Assembly (NCBI GenBank): GCA_017883615.1
Contig: JADGNF010000023.1
Location: 1,664-65,663, forward strand
Direction of reading: 5' to 3'
Source of the DNA: Candidatus Bathyarchaeota archaeon
Lineage (GTDB): Archaea > Thermoproteota > Bathyarchaeia > Bathyarchaeales > Bathycorpusculaceae
DNA: 64,000 nt
Below are positions 5,688 to 55,522 of the stretch, one piece after another (the first letter of the stretch is position 1; the number at the start of each line of letters is the position of its first letter). The notes beneath the pieces are model-generated. The model searched no databases. It was not told the DNA's origin and saw nothing but the letters and a program-made list of their open reading frames with translations. Position numbers and translations under genes: made by a program.

Positions 5688-6089
5688 TTAAGAAGGCAGA
5701 TTTTCCGGCAGCGACTGGTGATGAATTGAGGGGTTGTAGTAGAAAATATTAGCATTCACGATCAAGCTATCAGACCCTATGTAGCCCAAACAGTAAAGAG
5801 CGGTTCTTTGCGAATCCAGATAAATAGTGCGTACATTTTGGGATGCGGCTAGATTTTGAAAGTCTGTAAACAGACTCACTATCGCTTTGGAATCGATCCT
5901 AATGTTGGACATAGGCTGCGTTTCCACTGTAAATCCGGCAGCTTCAAGTTGGGCAACATATGTTTTGAGGTTATCCGAGACTTGCCAAGAAGTAAGAGAC
6001 CAAACGCTTACACCCGCGCTCGCCAAAACGATGCATCCAATTGAAGCTGAAAGGACCATAATCATCTGTCTGGTCAGCATCTCATGCAC
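5688..6089 (-). CDS. hypothetical membrane-anchored protein
   Basis: 133 aa with one N-terminal hydrophobic helix (MIMVLSASIGCIVLASAGVSVW). No recognisable motif. Confidence 0.4.
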   Translation of the reverse strand: MHEMLTRQMIMVLSASIGCIVLASAGVSVWSLTSWQVSDNLKTYVAQLEAAGFTVETQPMSNIRIDSKAIVSLFTDFQNLAASQNVRTIYLDSQRTALYCLGYIGSDSLIVNANIFYYNPSIHHQSLPENLPS

Positions 6090-6251
6090 CTAATTGTATA
6101 TTGTACAGATATGAATTAAAGCTTTTTCACACTCAGTCCTTTCAAATAATAAAAATAGCTTAATCGTAACAAGAATTTCCATAGGCAATAGTAATAGAAC
6201 TTAAAATTGTACAAAAGGGATGAGATAGTCTCTTAGAGGCTATTCTTTGGT

Positions 6252-7679
6252 TTACTTCTTGTTGGTGAGATATTCGTGCATTGCTTTTGCTGCACGTTTA
6301 CCTGCACCCATGGCGCTGATTACTGTGGCTGCACCTGTAGCAACATCTCCGCCTGCGTAAACTCCGTCAAGGCTGGTTTTCCCAACTTCGTTCACTGTTA
6401 TGGTTCCGTGTCTCGGGTCACTTTGTAAGCCTTCGGTTGTGCGTTGTATGATTGGGTTTGGAGTTTGTCCGATGGCGATTATTACTGTGTCAACTTCCAT
6501 GGTGAATTCGCTATCAGGAATGACTTTCACACCGCGTCTGCCTTTCGCATCTGGTTCAGTGAGTTCCATGCAAACGGCTTTCATGCTCTTAACCCAGCCC
6601 CGTTCGTCGCCGTAAAACTCGACTGGAGCCGCCAAGAATTTGCAGACTAAGCCTTCTTCTTCAGCGTTTTCGATTTCTTCGTGTCTAGCTGGCAGTTCGT
6701 CGCGGGAACGTCGGTAAACAAGGCAAACGTCAGAACCCAGACGCATGGAGCATCTTGCGCAGTCCATGGCAACGTTTCCGCCGCCTATGACGACGACGTG
6801 TTTGCCGATGCGGATTGGGGTGTCGTATTCTGGGAACAGATAGCCTTTCATGAGGTTAACACGGATGAGGAATTCGTTGGCTGAGTAGATGCCGCCTAGG
6901 TTTTCGCCTGGGCAACCTGTGAACTGTGGCAAACCTGCGCCGCTTCCGATGAACACGGCGTCGTATCCGCCTTCCTTCATCAGTTCGGGTATAGTGTGAG
7001 TTCTTCCAATCAAGTTACCCAACCGCAAGTCTACACCCAATTTCTGGACGTAATTGACTTCGTTTTGGACGATGGCTTTTGGCAAACGGAACTCTGGAAT
7101 ACCGTAAGAGAGCACTCCTCCTCCGACATGGAGAGCCTCAAACTCGGTGACTTCGTGACCTTGCTTAATTAAGTCCGCTGCTACTGTGAGTCCGGCTGGA
7201 CCAGCGCCGATAACCGCGACTTTCTTGCCTGTTGGCGTGGGTTTGGGGGGAAGTTGTGAGCCATTTTCGCGTTCCCAATCTGCCAGAAACCGTTCTAAAC
7301 GTCCGATGCTGATTGGGTCGCCCATTTTTCCAATGACACACTTGCTTTGGCATTGTACTTCCTGAGGGCATACACGTCCACAGACTGCAGGCAGCGCGTT
7401 TTTTGTCTTTATTGCGGCTATGCCTTCAGCGTATTTCTTTTCTTTGATGCATTTAATGAATGTTGGAATAGGAACTTCCACTGGGCAAGCCGTCATGCAC
7501 TGAGGCTTTGGGCAGGTCAAGCATCTGCTGGCTTCCTCCTGTGCTTCTGCTTCGGTGTATCCTAGGGCAACTTCTTTAAAGTTTTTGGCTCGGACTTTAG
7601 GCTCTTGCTTAGCCATTTCTACAGCTTTCTTGTTGAGTTTTGGTTTAGGCTTTGTTTCCGCCACACTTACAACCTCCAC
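6252..7679 (-). CDS. NfnB/SudA/GltD-like NAD(P)H-dependent FAD/Fe-S oxidoreductase (glutamate synthase small-subunit family)
   Basis: 475 aa. N-terminal Cys clusters (CLTCPKPQCMTACP, CGRVCP..C..C). Two Rossmann GxGxxG motifs (VAVIGAGPAGL, VVVIGGGNVAMD). C-terminal GVYAGGD. GTG start overlaps the end of the upstream NfnA-like gene. Confidence 0.85.
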   Translation of the reverse strand: MEVVSVAETKPKPKLNKKAVEMAKQEPKVRAKNFKEVALGYTEAEAQEEASRCLTCPKPQCMTACPVEVPIPTFIKCIKEKKYAEGIAAIKTKNALPAVCGRVCPQEVQCQSKCVIGKMGDPISIGRLERFLADWERENGSQLPPKPTPTGKKVAVIGAGPAGLTVAADLIKQGHEVTEFEALHVGGGVLSYGIPEFRLPKAIVQNEVNYVQKLGVDLRLGNLIGRTHTIPELMKEGGYDAVFIGSGAGLPQFTGCPGENLGGIYSANEFLIRVNLMKGYLFPEYDTPIRIGKHVVVIGGGNVAMDCARCSMRLGSDVCLVYRRSRDELPARHEEIENAEEEGLVCKFLAAPVEFYGDERGWVKSMKAVCMELTEPDAKGRRGVKVIPDSEFTMEVDTVIIAIGQTPNPIIQRTTEGLQSDPRHGTITVNEVGKTSLDGVYAGGDVATGAATVISAMGAGKRAAKAMHEYLTNKK

Positions 7680-8481
7680 TTGTTTCCCACAATAGTGAAC
7701 CTAAGCGCTCCTCAGGGAGCATTGTGCGTTGACGCAAAATTAACTCTTCAAAGTTGGTTTGGTGACCGTCAAATTCGGGTCCGTCAACGCATCCAAACAT
7801 CATTTTTCCGCCGACGGTGACTCGGCACACACCACACATTCCCATGCCGTCAATCATGATTGGCGTCAAAGTAACGACGGTTGGAATGCCAAAGGGTTTG
7901 GTGATTGCGCTGACATCTCGCATCATGACCACGGGACCCATAACGACACATCGGTCAAATTTTTCTTTCTTCAACAGATCGTTGAGGAAGTCTAAGCCTT
8001 TGTTGCCGTAGGAGCCGTCGTCTGTTGCGACGTAGACTTTGTCGCTTAGCGTCTTGGCTTCTTTTTCCATTATCATGGCCTCTTTGGTTCTTGCGCCCAA
8101 GACGGTGGTGACTTGGTTGCCGGCTGCTTTCATGGCTTTAACTTGGAGCAGTAGGGGTGCGATCATGATGCTTCCGCCGATGCAAAGAACTTTGCCGAAC
8201 TTTTTGATTTCAGAAGGATTGCCCAAAGGTCCAGTGACGTTAAGTATCTCTTGACCTTCGCTATAGCAACCCAGTTCTTTGGTGGTTTTGCCGACTTCGT
8301 GGAAAGCAAACGAAACCGTGCCCTTCTTGGCGTCGTAGCCGCTGATGGTTAACGGTACCCGTTCGCCTTTTTCGTGGGGAACCACTATGAGGAATTGGCC
8401 TGCTTGAGCTTTTGCAGCTATGTCTGGGGCTTCAACTTCGAAGAGGGTTTCTTTGTGTGAAAGCGTTTTCTTGCTAATTAT
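7645..8481 (-). CDS. NfnA/SudB-like ferredoxin-NADP reductase-type subunit (FAD barrel, NAD-binding domain, C-terminal 2Fe-2S Cys cluster)
   Basis: The ORF track starts at GTG 8385 (MVPHEKGERVP...). The same frame stays open for 32 more codons: ISKKTLSHKETLFEVEAPDIAAKAQAGQFLIV. That matches the usual N-terminus of this family. C-terminal CGVCRV...FGCVDGPEF. I place the start at ATA 8479-8481, so the start is uncertain (see findings). Confidence 0.8.
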   Translation of the reverse strand: MISKKTLSHKETLFEVEAPDIAAKAQAGQFLIVVPHEKGERVPLTISGYDAKKGTVSFAFHEVGKTTKELGCYSEGQEILNVTGPLGNPSEIKKFGKVLCIGGSIMIAPLLLQVKAMKAAGNQVTTVLGARTKEAMIMEKEAKTLSDKVYVATDDGSYGNKGLDFLNDLLKKEKFDRCVVMGPVVMMRDVSAITKPFGIPTVVTLTPIMIDGMGMCGVCRVTVGGKMMFGCVDGPEFDGHQTNFEELILRQRTMLPEERLGSLLWETSGGCKCGGNKA

Positions 8482-9707
8482 TTTGTACGTTTTCCTTTCG
8501 CCTCCGTCTTAATAGCTACAGTGCTCTGGGGCATTGCAGCAATCTTTTGGTAGAAAGATTCGAACTTGGGTTTGAATTCGCCTTGACATCTAGGGGATAG
8601 CTCGACGTATTCGAAGCGGTCGCTCAGGCCCATTTTTTGGAGCACATCTCGCAACACTGCCAGTTGGCGTTCTGCGACGTCTCGGCCTTCTTGGAGTTTG
8701 CAGTCTGTTGCGGAGCAAACTACGCCCATGACGCCATCAAATCCCGCTCGGAACGCATTCATGACGTGTACGGGGTCCATTGATTTGAAGCAGGGAACTT
8801 CGAGGACCATAGCGTTTTTGCCTTTGAGCACGCTGTCAGGGTCATCTAAGCCTGCGTACTCGGACCATTGGCAGCTAAAAACCACCACGGCTGGAACCTT
8901 CTTTGCCGCCTTGAGTTTAGTGACTGCGTTTGCGTATTTTTCCATGACGTTGTTGAATTCGAAACCTTTCACTTGGATTGCGTCGTGAGGACAAACCAAC
9001 TGGCAGGCGCCACAGCCGGTGCATTTCTCCATGTCTATTTTGGGGTTTGCGAAAGACTGCGCGGTTATGGCTTTGTAGGGGCAGATGAAAACGCATTTGT
9101 CGCAGCCAACGCATTCTTCGGTGACGTGTACTGCTTTGCGGCTGTACTTTACGACTTTGACGGCGTCTTTGCTGTATCCAAGTTGTTCGAGAACTGCTTG
9201 ACCGAGCATAAGGCGTCGGGTTTCAATCTTTGTGCCTTCCTTCATACGGCAGAACGCGTCTTCGCATTGGACCGAGACTATGTTTTTGATGCCGCCTTGG
9301 AGGACGTTGAAAACGAAGTCTGTTGGAATCCTTCCCGCGCATGGAACACGCAACGGGATATAATTCTTCACGTTTAGACCTTGCTCCTTGAAGATGTCAG
9401 CCATTTCGCCGTCTGTGGGCGAGTTGCCTCGGCACATCATGACAAGGGTGTCGGCTTTCACGGTTTTCTTTTCACAGTTAACGTAGTCTATTAGGTGATT
9501 GTAGTCGTAGTAGGCCATCTCTATGGCGGTGACGGGACAGGCGCTGTAGCATATTCCGCAAACCTGACATTTCTGGTTGTCTATTTCGACTTTGCAGGTT
9601 TCCGCGTCACGGGTTATGGCTTCAAACGGGCACATAGAATAGCAGACTTGACATCGACTACACAGGTCTTGGTTAATTTTTACGGCAGCGAGACACATTT
9701 CACTCAT
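8478..9707 (-). CDS. Fe-S protein: tandem [2x(4Fe-4S) ferredoxin + MvhD/FlpD-like domain] x2 fusion
   Basis: 409 aa with four CxxCxxCxxxCP motifs: CSRCQVCYSMCP, CQVCGICYSACP, CVGCDKCVFICP and CTGCGACQLVCP. Each ferredoxin pair is followed by an MvhD-like block. Block 1: LVMMCRGNS...RVPCAGRI...VSVQCEDAFCRMKEG. Block 2: VVFSCQWSEY...EVPCFKSMD...VVCSATDCKLQEG. Confidence 0.75.
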   Translation of the reverse strand: MSEMCLAAVKINQDLCSRCQVCYSMCPFEAITRDAETCKVEIDNQKCQVCGICYSACPVTAIEMAYYDYNHLIDYVNCEKKTVKADTLVMMCRGNSPTDGEMADIFKEQGLNVKNYIPLRVPCAGRIPTDFVFNVLQGGIKNIVSVQCEDAFCRMKEGTKIETRRLMLGQAVLEQLGYSKDAVKVVKYSRKAVHVTEECVGCDKCVFICPYKAITAQSFANPKIDMEKCTGCGACQLVCPHDAIQVKGFEFNNVMEKYANAVTKLKAAKKVPAVVVFSCQWSEYAGLDDPDSVLKGKNAMVLEVPCFKSMDPVHVMNAFRAGFDGVMGVVCSATDCKLQEGRDVAERQLAVLRDVLQKMGLSDRFEYVELSPRCQGEFKPKFESFYQKIAAMPQSTVAIKTEAKGKRTK

Positions 9708-10061
9708 TTCAGTGACCTCAAGTTATGGTTCCCAGTGCTTTTTACACCGTAAGCATGTTAACCTATGCTTATGAAACGATGAAGAGGGGTTTTGGATGAT
9801 ATAACGTTTACTGTTAGGATTCTTGAAATCGCTATATCGCACGGTTCGAGGTAGTTTTGATTAGCTGTTACTTTTTGTTTGCAGTAGTAAAAATTAAAAG
9901 GTTGTCATATGCAAGAACTTCCAAAGGCTTACATTTTGGTCTTTTATTTTGTTGCCGGGATTATGACTCCAAAAGGTCCTTTTTTCGAAATTAGAAAGTC
10001 TTAAGTTTGAATCAAGTCTATCAGCTAATGATTCAGCAATAATGCTTGATACAAAAAAGGT

Positions 10062-10697
10062 ATGCCTATGGAATTAAGCGCTGACGCACAAAAAGTTCTC
10101 CTCAGAATCTACATAGGTCAGAATATTAGAGATGAGGGAATTCTCCAATCTGAAGTCAAAAACAAGGAGACAGAGGAACTTCTAGCGCGAGGAATCATTG
10201 AGCAAAACCATTGGCATTTACCGGAATTCAAGACTACCAATTATGGAACTGCTGTCGCAAGCGAAATCGTCAATGCAAAGATTGACCAAAATAGAACCGC
10301 CTTAAGCGAAAAATTAAGGCTAATTCCAGAAAAAGTTATTGGGTTTTTTAATAGGAGATACCTATCTAAGAAGCTAAATTTCTCTACCGAAAGAGGTAGA
10401 AACGAAACATTCTTTTACTCTGATTCCTGGGCCGACGCAATACTTTTCGACAGTCGAATTTGGTTCCTATGGAACGCGTTCTTTGAAACGCTAATTCCAT
10501 TTGAACTGTGCACAAAAACACATTACTACGTGTCTACAAAGGGCGGGGCGATCAGAGATTATCGTTTTGTAATTTGCCCTGAAGTGCGGGATTTTGCAAT
10601 TCGTAACTTTGACGCTGTGGATTTTACAACGGTTGAGGAAAATACGCTTTCACTCTACCCATTTCTGCGATTAGCAAAAAGTATTGTCTCCATTTGA
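10062..10697 (+). CDS. hypothetical protein, first gene of the TIR island
   Basis: 211 aa in the AT-richer island. No motif recognised; the N-terminal ~50 aa may be helical or wHTH-like. Its 3' end overlaps the TIR gene by 14 nt. Confidence 0.5.
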   Translation: MPMELSADAQKVLLRIYIGQNIRDEGILQSEVKNKETEELLARGIIEQNHWHLPEFKTTNYGTAVASEIVNAKIDQNRTALSEKLRLIPEKVIGFFNRRYLSKKLNFSTERGRNETFFYSDSWADAILFDSRIWFLWNAFFETLIPFELCTKTHYYVSTKGGAIRDYRFVICPEVRDFAIRNFDAVDFTTVEENTLSLYPFLRLAKSIVSI

Positions 10698-11940
10698 CGA
10701 TGTGGAACAAATTCGAGAACGATTCTATAGTTTGTACAAATCATCAAGATTAAGCGAAGGGCAGGTTGCTGCAATAATTGGTGAAATGAGTAAGAGGAGA
10801 ATCACCTCCGAATTCCAAGGTTTTCTATCAGAATGTAAGCCGTTTACAATTCTGAACCCAACAATGTATGATATTTACTTGGAAAAGGAAATTATTGATG
10901 CGGCAACTACCAACCTTTTAAAAGGAATCGGCACAATTAAAAATTACGAATCGGAATATATCTCATCCAGTTCCAGCGGAGAAAGAGCCAAACATGAATC
11001 TGTAACGCCCAAGTTCCAAGTTTTCATTTGCTACAGAAGAGATACTGGGGAAGATTTTGCAGAACACCTGAAAATTGGTTTGGAAAAGTTCGGCATACGT
11101 GCGTTTCTTGATATCAAAGACATCCCAGAGAAATTTAAAGGAACAGAAAAATGGGTGGATATTCGAGATAATGCCATCCGTGAAAGTCAAACGTTCCTGC
11201 TTATTGTGACTCCCGGTTTTTGCGAATCATCTGAAGTCAAGAAAGAATTGAACGCAGGAGTTTCAATTGATAAGTACATAGTATGTTTCAGGCACAAAGA
11301 CATGCACTCGAATCTGAGAATCGATTTAAAAAACAAAGAAATTGACTTGAGTAAACTGCAACAGATAGTTTTTGATACAAAACAAGATCTACTTCGCAAA
11401 GCCCACAGAATTTTGGTGGAAGAAAAAAACAACTCACCACCTGCTGAAACTGTAAACGAAAATACGGCGTTAAATAATTCATGGGGAATAGTCACAAATA
11501 ATGAAAAACAATCGGACTTATTTTTGACAAAAAATTGGAATCCCTTGCCAGTGGTCAAGTTCAACATATCTCAAAATCTAGCCGATGTTTTTCAATTCCC
11601 GCAGGTAGGGTGGGAAGCGTATAATTACAGTCCATACCAGCTTAAGATCAGGATAAATGTTCGCCCAAAACTCGGGGACAAAAAGCTGTATCCCCTTGCT
11701 GATGATGACATAAATGGAACTAAATCTTACGCAGCCGAACCTAATAGTCCAGTTTGGAAGAACGGTTGTTTTTCATTACCCACAGAGTCTGTGCAAAGCA
11801 AAGCAGACCTTATTCTAGAAATACAATCCACGGTATTTGATGTTAACGAGCCAGAAAAAGGAGAATACAATATGCTGCCCAGCATTTGGAAATACAACCG
11901 AAAAGATAACACATGGGATTATTACCCTCAGGGGTTTTAA
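10684..11940 (+). CDS. TIR-domain protein with unknown N- and C-terminal domains
   Basis: 418 aa. The central block FQVFICYRRDTGEDFAEHLKIGLEKFGIRAFLDIKDI...TFLLIVTPGFCESSEVKKELNAG...YIVCF follows the prokaryotic TIR pattern (vFISYrr-D, G-i-vFlD, vvvllSp-y--S-wc--EL). The TTG start at 10684 is uncertain; GTG 10702 or a later ATG are possible. Confidence 0.8.
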   Translation: MSPFDDVEQIRERFYSLYKSSRLSEGQVAAIIGEMSKRRITSEFQGFLSECKPFTILNPTMYDIYLEKEIIDAATTNLLKGIGTIKNYESEYISSSSSGERAKHESVTPKFQVFICYRRDTGEDFAEHLKIGLEKFGIRAFLDIKDIPEKFKGTEKWVDIRDNAIRESQTFLLIVTPGFCESSEVKKELNAGVSIDKYIVCFRHKDMHSNLRIDLKNKEIDLSKLQQIVFDTKQDLLRKAHRILVEEKNNSPPAETVNENTALNNSWGIVTNNEKQSDLFLTKNWNPLPVVKFNISQNLADVFQFPQVGWEAYNYSPYQLKIRINVRPKLGDKKLYPLADDDINGTKSYAAEPNSPVWKNGCFSLPTESVQSKADLILEIQSTVFDVNEPEKGEYNMLPSIWKYNRKDNTWDYYPQGF

Positions 11941-12071
11941 CGAATTGAAAAGATAACAGAAAAAAGAAAGCGATAGAAAAAACGTACAGAAGATTTGCCA
12001 GTCCAAAAATTATGAAAAAGCGCCGCTCACAATTGGAGAAAATCCATCTGTAAAATGACAACCCTTTCGCG

Positions 12072-13013
12072 CTATTTTCTGTAGTAGGGTCGTTTTATGT
12101 ATGCGTAGGCTTCCAGCGCCGCCGTGATGCCTTGTCCCACAGCTGTACCTATCTGTCTCACTGGATAATTCGTTACATCACCCGCAGCAAAGACGCCAGG
12201 AATATTCGTATGTTGGCGTATGTCGATTTTTATGCACCCGCCATCCTCAACCTCCACCCCGGACTCTTTAGCAACTTGGCTGTTTGGGGATTCCCCGATC
12301 TGTACAAAGACGCCATCAATGGCCAATTCTTGGATTGCGCCCGTTTGATAATCAGACACCACCGCAGTTGTGACGACTTTATCGCCCTTGATCTCTTTCA
12401 CTTCGGTGTTCCACATAACCTTCACGTTACCTTTAGACTCCAAATCCTTCACAAGGGCATTTTCAGCCCGGAAAGCATCTCTCCTGTGGACAACAAAGAC
12501 CGCCGCGGCTAAGCCTGAAAGGTATAGGGTAGTTATGCATGCTGAGTTACCGCCGCCAATCACGAGCACGCGTTTGCCCTTGAAAAAGGGACCGTCGCAA
12601 ACGCCGCAATAACTTACGCCTCTTCCCCGAAATTCTTTTTCGCCTTTCACTTCCGCTTCTCTGTAATGCGCACCCGACGCGATTATGATTGCGGGGGCTT
12701 CGTATTCTGCGCGACTGGTTTTCACGATTTTCTTTTCGCCTTTAAGGTCTAAGCTTACAACGGTTTCCAACTCGTGGATGGTGGCGCCAGTTTTTTTGGC
12801 ATGTGAAACCTTTTTGTCTGCCAACTCCGCGCCCGTCACGAAAGGAAAGCCAGGGTAGTTTTCCACGATGGGGGCGTCTGCTGTTGTTCCTCCCGCCAGT
12901 TTCTCGTCCAAAATTAGGGTTTTGAGTCCGCTTCGGGAACCATAAATTCCGGCGGCTAAACCTGCCGCTCCTGCTCCAATGATTATTAGATCCCAGGTTT
13001 CCATGTGAACCAC
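12072..13013 (-). CDS. trxB: thioredoxin-disulfide reductase
   Basis: 313 aa. Contains DLIIIGAGAAGLAAG (FAD GxGxxG), the redox-active CGVCDG, VLVIGGGNSA (NADPH site) and C-terminal GVFAAGDV. TAG stop. Confidence 0.9.
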   Translation of the reverse strand: MVHMETWDLIIIGAGAAGLAAGIYGSRSGLKTLILDEKLAGGTTADAPIVENYPGFPFVTGAELADKKVSHAKKTGATIHELETVVSLDLKGEKKIVKTSRAEYEAPAIIIASGAHYREAEVKGEKEFRGRGVSYCGVCDGPFFKGKRVLVIGGGNSACITTLYLSGLAAAVFVVHRRDAFRAENALVKDLESKGNVKVMWNTEVKEIKGDKVVTTAVVSDYQTGAIQELAIDGVFVQIGESPNSQVAKESGVEVEDGGCIKIDIRQHTNIPGVFAAGDVTNYPVRQIGTAVGQGITAALEAYAYIKRPYYRK

Positions 13014-13078
13014 ACGTTTGATACTCTAATTTGATTTGGCGCGGTTTATGAATCATTCGGAGCCTAAAAGACAGGGAA

Positions 13079-13666
13079 TCAGAGTATGCTTATTCCGAGC
13101 ACCGCGCCAACTATCGATATGGCGCCGAGGATGATGAATAGAGCTGAAGTGCCTGTGTTTATCCACTTCATTGGCAGTCGGCACAGCACTTTGCACCCTA
13201 TTGTCACCCCTATGCCAGTTAGCACCGCAAACGCTGCCATCATCCCCACCAACACCAAAATTGGGTTCGCCTCAGCCGCCAACGTGATAGCGACAATCTG
13301 TGTTTTGTCCCCTAACTCCATAAGCGAAACCAGCGAAAAACAGGAGAAAACGAAAAACTTTCCCCCTTTCTTCAAGTGATGGGTGCTTTCTTTTGCTTTA
13401 TGCAGCCAAGGCAAAACGCCAAAAAAAATGAAAACCGCACCCGCTATCACCTGAATTGCAGTTATGGGAAGAAACGCCAGCAGGGAACCGCCGATGACTA
13501 GGCTAACGCCGTCCACGACTAGAAAAGCCAAAATCGCACCTGCAAAAACCTCCCGCGCCCTATGATTAGAAGCCAGCGAAATTACAGTAAGCTGAGTTTT
13601 GTCGCCAAGTTCCGCGACGAAAATGAGCAGAAACGTTGTGAGCAGGGGAACAAAGTCCATGCACAA
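13079..13666 (-). CDS. GDT1/TMEM165 (UPF0016) family cation transporter
   Basis: 195 aa, multi-pass membrane protein. It has the duplicated E-x-G-D-K-T signature of the family: AELGDKTQL and MELGDKTQI. Confidence 0.85.
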   Translation of the reverse strand: MCMDFVPLLTTFLLIFVAELGDKTQLTVISLASNHRAREVFAGAILAFLVVDGVSLVIGGSLLAFLPITAIQVIAGAVFIFFGVLPWLHKAKESTHHLKKGGKFFVFSCFSLVSLMELGDKTQIVAITLAAEANPILVLVGMMAAFAVLTGIGVTIGCKVLCRLPMKWINTGTSALFIILGAISIVGAVLGISIL

Positions 13667-44581: not shown

Positions 44582-44658
44582 GCGGTCTTAGTCCAGCCTG
44601 GCTAGGACATCAGGTTCCCAACCTGACGACCCGGGTTCAAATCCCGGAGACCGCACCA
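44582..44658 (+). tRNA. tRNA-Gly (anticodon CCC), CCA encoded
   Basis: Hand-folded cloverleaf. Acceptor stem GCGGTCT/AGACCGC, D stem GTCC/GGAC, anticodon stem TCAGG/CCTGA with loop TTCCCAA, T stem CCGGG/CCCGG with loop TTCAAAT. Ends in ACCA. Confidence 0.9.
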
Positions 44659-55443: not shown

Positions 55444-55522
55444 TGGTAGCGGGGAGTAGATTTGAACTACTGATCTCTGGGTTATGAGCCCAGCGGGTTA
55501 ATCCTGGCTACCCCACCCCGCT
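55444..55522 (-). tRNA. initiator tRNA-Met (anticodon CAT), CCA encoded
   Basis: The minus strand reads AGCGGGGTGGGGTAGCCAGGATTAACCCGCTGGGCTCATAACCCAGAGATCAGTAGTTCAAATCTACTCCCCGCTACCA. It has an A1:U72 pair, three consecutive G:C pairs at the bottom of the anticodon stem (CTGGG/CCCAG) and the loop CTCATAA. These are hallmarks of archaeal initiator tRNA. Confidence 0.9.

Follow-up and report, generated by a model that had tools for sequence, protein, structure and literature searches.

Comparison With Described Defence Systems

The 64,000-nucleotide (nt) stretch of contig JADGNF010000023.1 from a Candidatus Bathyarchaeota archaeon that was analyzed in this study (hereafter, the window) contains an insert with one gene, which would encode, from front to rear, an ~300-amino-acid (aa) module of two winged helices and a helical part (N-module), a TIR domain, and a C-terminal all-beta domain (C-beta). 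With a probability of roughly 60%, we read this gene as a modular single-protein sensor-effector of the abortive-infection type that is probably disabled in the copy at hand. To our knowledge, immunity in uncultivated archaea has hardly been explored, and a literature search on Bathyarchaeota, TIR and defence found no paper. What appears to be new is a TIR-based candidate for single-protein defence that is composed of two undescribed modules.

The TIR-SAVED and TIR-STING effectors of CBASS, PycTIR of Pycsar and the DUF4062 protein “Swarozyc” likewise carry an effector N-terminal to a constant C-terminal module. C-beta exchanges the same effectors as the CBASS/Pycsar-type and single-protein NAD+-cleaving (NADase) systems, namely TIR, CAP12-type TIR, DUF4062, HNH and transmembrane (TM) segments, and an assembly-activated logic would be expected. 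Unlike SAVED, STING, cNMP-binding or other known sensors, however, C-beta showed no sequence match and no significant fold match. The locus also departs from CBASS and Pycsar in that the insert holds no cyclase gene, the window protein has a second constant module in front, and C-beta was seen in Bathyarchaeota only (four loci). The only match to a CBASS-type model, SAVED-TIR, covers the TIR part. DUF4062 has been described as a TIR-like NADase defence effector (bioRxiv 10.64898/2026.05.01.722283; 10.64898/2026.09.04.749371). The window protein has no DUF4062 match, and this domain was found only in C-beta paralogues such as P0013.

Like Thoeris (ThsB and ThsA), the window gene has a conserved Glu in its TIR domain, and it shows a weak similarity to the ThsB profile, but it differs in its multi-domain architecture, in having no ThsA or other second gene, and in scores far below the cut-offs (25 versus 220 bits). 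The best sequence match among solved structures is the TIR domain of the NAD+ hydrolase SARM1 (FICYRRDTGEDFAEHLK... in the window protein and FISYRRNSGSQLASLLK... in SARM1). The window TIR presumably lacks the stretch that separates strand C from the catalytic Glu in SARM1, and the window protein, unlike SARM1, has neither ARM nor SAM domains.

The fourth comparison concerns the Swt1/Abi2-type HEPN proteins (PDC-M34B). The front ~300 residues of the window protein are 39–55% identical to proteins that end in this HEPN domain, but the window copy has TIR and C-beta in its place. The HEPN family is described from islands of restriction-modification (R-M) and GmrSD-type genes (Anantharaman et al., 2013; PMC3710099), and two HEPN-ended relatives were found in such islands: P0059 lies between GmrSD and a transposase with a type I R-M operon, and P0052 lies between a BamHI-like R-M pair and GmrSD. 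The double winged-helix front module was not found among the architectures listed in PMC3710099.

One Gene Interrupted by One Extra T

Two open reading frames (ORFs) on the forward strand overlap by 14 nt, ORF1 at 10062–10697 (211 aa, ATG start) and ORF2 at 10684–11940 (418 aa, TTG start). The first-pass annotation of the window took them for two overlapping genes, a TIR-domain protein and a partner that fits no family. Both ORFs and their overlap are present in the DNA, but the homology evidence indicates one frameshifted gene. The NCBI version of ORF2 (P0001, 412 aa) starts at GTG 10702 and does not overlap ORF1; the “overlap” thus depends on annotation.

When ORF1 was searched alone, few homologues were obtained (four proteins of ~130 aa and one partial). 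On contig L001, a 125-aa homologue is followed by an in-frame TAG and then by a 329-aa ORF that matches the C-terminal half of ORF1 together with the N-terminus of ORF2. Because of this layout, the search was repeated with a conceptual fusion of ORF1 and ORF2 from residue 5. The fusion query found more than 20 intact proteins of 440–525 aa, P0050–P0068 among them, with a coverage of 86–94% and an identity of 39–55%, and four more distant intact proteins at 31–39% identity.

The frameshift site lies at 10693–10697 (+), where DNA and three-frame translation show the T-run 10693–10695 and then an in-frame TGA (10695–10697). The DNA of the junction reads GTC TCC ATT TGA C. Deletion of one T of 10693–10695 yields ...S I V S I D D V E Q... 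and opens a frame of 625 codons at 10062–11940 (+), and the single gene for a 625-aa protein is supported by BLASTP, homologue coverage and MAFFT. In the repaired translation, KSIVSI before the break and DDVEQIRERFY after it align to RRILGIDDVEQARQRFY of P0050, and the MAFFT alignment is gapless at the junction (LSLYPFLRLAKSIVSI joined to DDVEQIRERFY in the window, LKLYSFLKPARRILGIDDVEQARQRFY in P0050). BLASTP of the repaired translation against P0050 gave one high-scoring segment pair of 297 aa with 55% identity that spans the junction, its single gap being elsewhere. Since ORF1 and the ORF2 N-terminus are collinear with single intact proteins and gapless at the junction, the two ORFs are to be read as a single gene whose frame is shifted by +1 within the T-run, and the 14-nt overlap as the footprint of this frameshift.

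The break maps to about residue 209, inside the compact fold that AlphaFold2 (AF2) predicts for the module, and the full-length protein is probably not made here. What remains would be, at most, a free double winged-helix fragment and a truncated product of helical stub, TIR and C-beta that starts at the TTG, the GTG or an ATG further inside. For annotation, the locus shows that a pair of the form “TIR plus unknown partner” can be a single broken gene.

The N-Terminal Module and Its HEPN-Ended Relatives

The N-module (~300 aa; 10062–10956, +) covers ORF1 and residues 5–91 of ORF2. According to the AF2 model of a homologue, it consists of winged helix 1 with the IYIGQNIRDEGILQS motif, a long helix, winged helix 2 with a YVSTRGG wing, and a helical bundle. 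The model of P0050 residues 1–303 (alignment A4, 21 sequences) is predicted as one compact unit with a pLDDT of 91.6 and a pTM of 0.87. Foldseek found no global match for it, only local winged-helix matches (ScpB, Rio2, MntR, Sso10a), and neither the N-module nor ORF1 matched anything in Pfam, NCBIfam, PADLOC or PHROG. Aligned to the intact homologues, the 211-aa “partner” and the N-terminal ~110 aa of ORF2 prove to be parts of a single ~300-aa module that has not been described. The supposed partner corresponds to its N-terminal two thirds and is part of a continuous polypeptide in 20+ relatives. The ~110-aa region, which the first-pass annotation had listed as a separate region fitting no family, does lack a library match, but it is the last third of the same module.

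The window protein belongs, by its homologous ~300-aa N-terminal module and by the IYIGQNIRDEGILQS motif, to a double winged-helix/HEPN family (P0050–P0072). All intact relatives of the N-module end in a HEPN domain. Most of these domains carry GRNP[IL]MH, and the four distant ones have a different HEPN with RNxxSH. The HEPN of the L001 copy is Swt1-like (Pfam, E value 1e-3), and that of P0050 matches the PADLOC candidate PDC-M34B (E value 3e-13). No match to HEPN was found in the window protein, whose TIR domain stands where the relatives begin their HEPN with its R-x4-6-H motif. In the MAFFT alignment, a Ser-rich linker (ISSSSSGERAKHESVTP; 10957–11010, +) occupies the position at which the relatives continue into HEPN.

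Several relatives have unusual layouts of their own. The HEPN-ended copy at L001:8001–9380, also present on L002 and L003, is broken by a TGG>TAG change where the intact sister P0060 has Trp, and this lesion is common to the three contigs, which come from three samples. The L001 gene adjoins a tyrosine integrase and another TIR-domain gene (L001:1–793). The L049 copy, at 2× coverage, has several frameshifts. A genuine two-gene form occurs at L047:1401–2089 and L048:812–1500, where a 130-aa winged-helix-1 gene with the IYIGQNIRDEGILQS motif overlaps by 4 nt a 99-aa ORF that has an R-x4-H (RSKVVH) HEPN-like motif. This layout looks like a toxin-antitoxin pair.

The TIR Domain

The TIR domain proposed by the first-pass annotation was confirmed by profile search at ORF2 residues ~110–245 (11011–11418, +). 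Pfam TIR_2 matched residues 113–216 with 46.1 bits (cut-off 28; E value 8.2e-12), and Pfam TIR matched with 24.7 bits (cut-off 21.3; E value 2.3e-5), which places ORF2 in the TIR superfamily by sequence. The matches to PADLOC and NCBIfam models (ThsB, SAVED-TIR, Argonaute-associated TIR, Thoeris ThcB4 and retron-TIR) were weak and covered the TIR part only.

The candidate catalytic Glu is E188 of ORF2 (nt 11245–11247), equal to E395 of the repaired protein, in ...SSEVKKEL. It is invariant in 12 homologous TIRs, where it belongs to the motif S-x-E-[IV]-x-K-E-[LVF], some ten residues past strand C. We take this to be the position of the catalytic Glu in TIR NADases (SARM1 E642, ...WVHKEI...). 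Among solved structures, SARM1 TIR domains come closest by sequence (E value 8e-5; strands A–C, ~65 residues aligned), but the HMMER alignments to SARM1, including a profile search of PDB with the TIR alignment, end just before the Glu. The Glu that the first-pass annotation had placed by eye at the NADase position is thus where it was expected and is invariant, and its role as the catalytic residue is consistent with these data, not proven by them.

The C-Terminal Beta Domain

C-beta (~135 aa; 11536–11937, +) is predicted by AF2 and alignment A1 to be an all-beta immunoglobulin (Ig)-like sandwich with the motifs WxPLP, VGWE, SPYQL, DDDING, NGCF[ST]LP, WKY and YYPQ. Alignment A1 comprises 22 sequences with unrelated N-termini and has a mean column identity of 66% and 28 invariant positions; the window domain is 52–64% identical to 20 of the 21 other sequences and 43% identical to the most distant one. 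The AF2 model has nine strands (pLDDT 87.7), and its best match in PDB is ApaG (E value 8e-3, TM-score 0.43). A specific structural assignment was rejected, as Foldseek against PDB and BFVD returned generic Ig-like, ApaG, PapD and C2 folds with best E values of 8e-3 and 6.5e-3 and TM-scores of 0.52 or less. C-beta matched no Pfam, PADLOC or NCBIfam model.

The C-beta profile found 101 clusters among 1.84 billion cluster representatives, and the domain is almost always C-terminal. P0001 matches this profile at residues 275–411 of 412 with an E value of 3.5e-63 (227.8 bits), which makes it a clear member of the family. A scan of 185,579 species genomes gave four C-beta loci, all in Bathyarchaeota metagenome-assembled genomes (MAGs). 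A viral origin was considered and rejected, no C-beta relative being found in IMG/VR viral contigs.

The homologues of ORF2 form two groups. Stand-alone proteins of ~300 aa (P0002, P0003, P0006) share the TIR domain and the tail, that is 73% of ORF2, at 46–57% identity, and many other proteins share only the last ~135 residues, at 52–64% identity, behind unrelated N-termini. When 71 C-beta proteins were scanned with Pfam, 11 had TIR_2, four a CAP12/Pycsar-type TIR, one ThsB_TIR, one DUF4062 and two HNH; N-terminal TM helices were present in 16 of the 71. As for gene neighbours, the TIR–C-beta gene on L007 is bordered by an OLD-like ATPase on one side and by Mrr on the other, its L008 counterpart adjoins an AAA_21 ATPase, P0029 is next to an integrase and Mrr_N, and P0003 is next to a transposase. 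On L005, from a Bathyarchaeota MAG, the C-terminal fragment of a tyrosine recombinase and a Cys-rich ORF of 346 aa flank the TM–C-beta gene (5954–6508 and 8678–9718), which suggests a small integrated element.

Other arrangements were also observed. In P0043, C-beta comes first and a TIR-like domain follows, and P0004 and P0005 have ~190–230 extra residues after C-beta. A shuffled module of ~100 aa (…AISNLAAFYDTV.GARKVQKVYPKLF…ADKICR[VI]LE…LHR.YS…LGF) stands before or after the TIR domain in the ORF2 relatives P0009, P0010, P0011, P0022 and P0032; it has no Pfam assignment in the tables.

Proposed Function and Alternative Explanations

Judged by alignment, the gene is a recombinant of two families, its front coming from the HEPN-ended (Swt1/Abi2-type) family and its TIR–C-beta rear from the ~300-aa stand-alone family. 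Domain assignments show in both families a constant module combined with swappable, predicted toxin-type effectors, and members of both were found several times, but not in every case, next to defence or mobile genes. A defence role is plausible because both other modules belong to families found beside restriction, OLD and Mrr genes, integrases and transposases. To this extent the defence module proposed by the first-pass annotation stands; its two-gene form does not.

The intact protein would recognize an infection cue through one or both of its constant modules. The winged helices may bind nucleic acid, and C-beta may bind a protein or a small ligand. Recognition would then cause the TIR domains to associate with each other and to form a composite NAD+-cleaving site around the conserved Glu. 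Through depletion of NAD+, or through a signal that is made, the infected cell would stop growing.

Several points weigh against the reading of the gene as a disabled abortive-infection protein. The activity of both families is predicted only, and the catalytic equivalence of E188 relies on motif position and invariance. The architecture of N-module, TIR and C-beta is a singleton: among 5.8 billion clusters, the N-module is joined to a TIR domain nowhere else, and no other protein covers more than 73% of ORF2. The evidence from gene neighbourhoods comes from a handful of loci rather than from an enrichment statistic, and one C-beta gene, P0006, sits among housekeeping genes. The frameshift itself could also be an assembly error in front of an intact gene.

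Under this last explanation, the shift would be a sequencing or assembly error in the MAG, and the organism would have an intact 625-aa gene and a functional system. The lesion is indeed single, 1 nt in the homopolymer TTT, while all else is open and conserved; the sequence has one source contig (P0001/P0044; 68,210 nt), and the thinly covered L049 copy shows several such shifts. For a homopolymer error, however, a T-run of 3 nt is short, and independent relatives are truly broken in other ways, such as by the stop codon common to L001–L003. These independent lesions suggest that decay of such genes is common, and we regard an error as unlikely, though it deserves to be taken seriously. A functional split, in which the two polypeptides reassemble or act as regulator or antitoxin and toxin, has precedents in the two-gene arrangement of L047 and L048 and in the stand-alone TIR–C-beta proteins, which imply that the ORF2 product could still act. 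Against such a split, the break lies within a compact predicted fold and not at a domain boundary, the homology extends through residues upstream of any start codon, and the split point recurs in no other genome; this explanation appears improbable. The third way to keep the gene functional is a programmed +1 ribosomal frameshift at AUU-UGA-C (10692–10698), by which full-length protein would be made at a regulated low level. The shift falls exactly at an in-frame UGA with C after it and a U-rich codon before it, and we take this site to resemble CUU-UGA-C, at which bacterial prfB undergoes programmed frameshifting. However, the reading frame is uninterrupted at this point in all 20+ homologues, so that the site is not conserved, and an Ile-tRNA that had slipped would be mispaired at the first position. 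The resemblance is probably a coincidence, and we give this possibility almost no weight.

Two further alternatives concern the role of the protein. In a Thoeris-like or other signalling system, as the first-pass annotation had proposed, the TIR domain would make a cyclic ADPR-type signal for an effector encoded by a separate gene. The ThsB matches that point in this direction are weak and cover the TIR domain only (PADLOC, E value 6e-6; NCBIfam ThcB4, E value 6e-6, 25.2 bits against the cut-off of 220), and PADLOC returned nothing for ORF1. The insert contains neither a ThsA-type gene (SIR2/SLOG, Macro or TM) nor any second gene, and its flanks are syntenic housekeeping genes. In the neighbourhoods examined, no partner gene recurs next to relatives of either family. 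A Thoeris-like role is thus highly improbable here. It is also conceivable that the protein has no part in immunity and belongs to a mobile element or to regulation, with the winged helices as a transcription factor and TIR and C-beta as interaction scaffolds. TIR domains are known to be able to serve as scaffolds, the front module resembles winged helices, and several relatives lie in integrated elements. However, the partners interchanged on both modules (HEPN, HNH, TIR, DUF4062 and TM) are enzymatic toxins typical of conflict systems, and the putative catalytic Glu is invariant; we consider a role outside immunity rather improbable.

Returning to the sensor-effector reading, a bolder form of it can be put forward tentatively, at less than even odds. 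C-beta would be a new infection-sensing domain that is restricted to Bathyarchaeota and defines a family of abortive-infection systems, each consisting of a single protein, in which NADase, HNH, HEPN-like and membrane effectors are interchangeable, and the double winged-helix module would define a second such family. The window gene would then be a natural recombinant that placed a TIR NADase under two sensors, the modular shuffling of archaeal immune genes caught in the act. The locus points to two modules that are absent from Pfam, NCBIfam, PADLOC and PHROGs and that both behave like constant (sensor) halves. If confirmed, they would add archaeal-specific sensors to the theme of TIR/NADase immunity common to bacteria, plants and animals, and would offer handles for finding what the viruses of Bathyarchaeota expose to their hosts.

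Insertion Site and Composition

The insert occupies 9813–12064 of the window (2,252 nt), between the operon of an Fe-S protein and NfnAB and the gene trxB. It was delimited by blastn against the nearest relative, L009, and by its G + C content. In L009, the sequences corresponding to 6021–9812 and 12065–13140 are contiguous and the insert is absent; 111 nt separate trxB from the Fe-S gene, the flanking proteins are 92–97% identical to those of the window, and the DNA is ~86% identical. The region is thus a strain-specific AT-rich insertion and not a core-genome locus with host-like composition. The AT-richness that had been noticed by eye was borne out by computation. The G + C content of the insert is 0.382, compared with 0.480 in the rest of the window (z = −4.5), the lowest of any 2.25-kb stretch in the 64 kb. 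In 500-nt windows, it is 0.37–0.39 over 9750–12000 versus 0.47–0.52 in both flanks, and at third codon positions (GC3) it is 0.37–0.39 in the insert versus 0.46–0.58 in neighbouring genes.

When metagenome contigs were scanned with the Fe-S protein encoded next to the insert, 30 loci were obtained, 26 of them informative. In 17 of these 26, trxB ends ~105–115 nt before the Fe-S gene. Other, unrelated inserts occur at the same spot in L010, L012, L013 and L014 (85–87% identity), in the segments L010:1–3563, L012:3050–4480, L013:9137–10000 and L014:1–2555, which are equivalent to 9813–12064 of the window. These unrelated inserts mark the spacer that separates trxB from the Fe-S gene as a variable site at which insertions recur. 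The insert of the window holds one gene only, while its neighbours trxB, the Fe-S protein gene and NfnAB are in conserved synteny; within the explanation preferred above, it is best understood as a horizontally acquired single-gene cassette in a variable intergenic spot. The unrelated inserts range in size from 0.35 to >3.5 kb. That of L010 encodes membrane or secreted proteins, and that of L014 consists of ORFs without assignment.

Neither a target-site duplication nor convincing terminal repeats were found at the insert ends, and no integrase or tRNA gene was found at the insert. An Rfam scan of the window found two tRNA genes only, at 44582–44655 (+) and 55447–55522 (−); both are distant, and a tRNA-linked island was rejected. 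Scans for sigma-70 promoters and for terminators were uninformative, the organism being an archaeon. Ten further large ORFs in the window were scanned; two had no Pfam match, and eight were housekeeping genes (acyl-CoA synthetase, P-type ATPase, PurL, AspRS and others).

Two minor features of the insert may be due to chance. A 13-nt inverted repeat at 9896–9908 and 12055–12067 (AAAAGGTTGTCAT and ATGACAACCCTTT) is 92% complementary; the right arm falls precisely on the right edge of the insert, whereas the left arm lies 84 nt inside the left edge. A 31-codon ORF with an ATG start (MQELPKAYILVFYFVAGIMTPKGPFFEIRKS; 9909–10004, +) closely precedes the main gene, with which it shares the strand, and would encode a peptide with a hydrophobic core.

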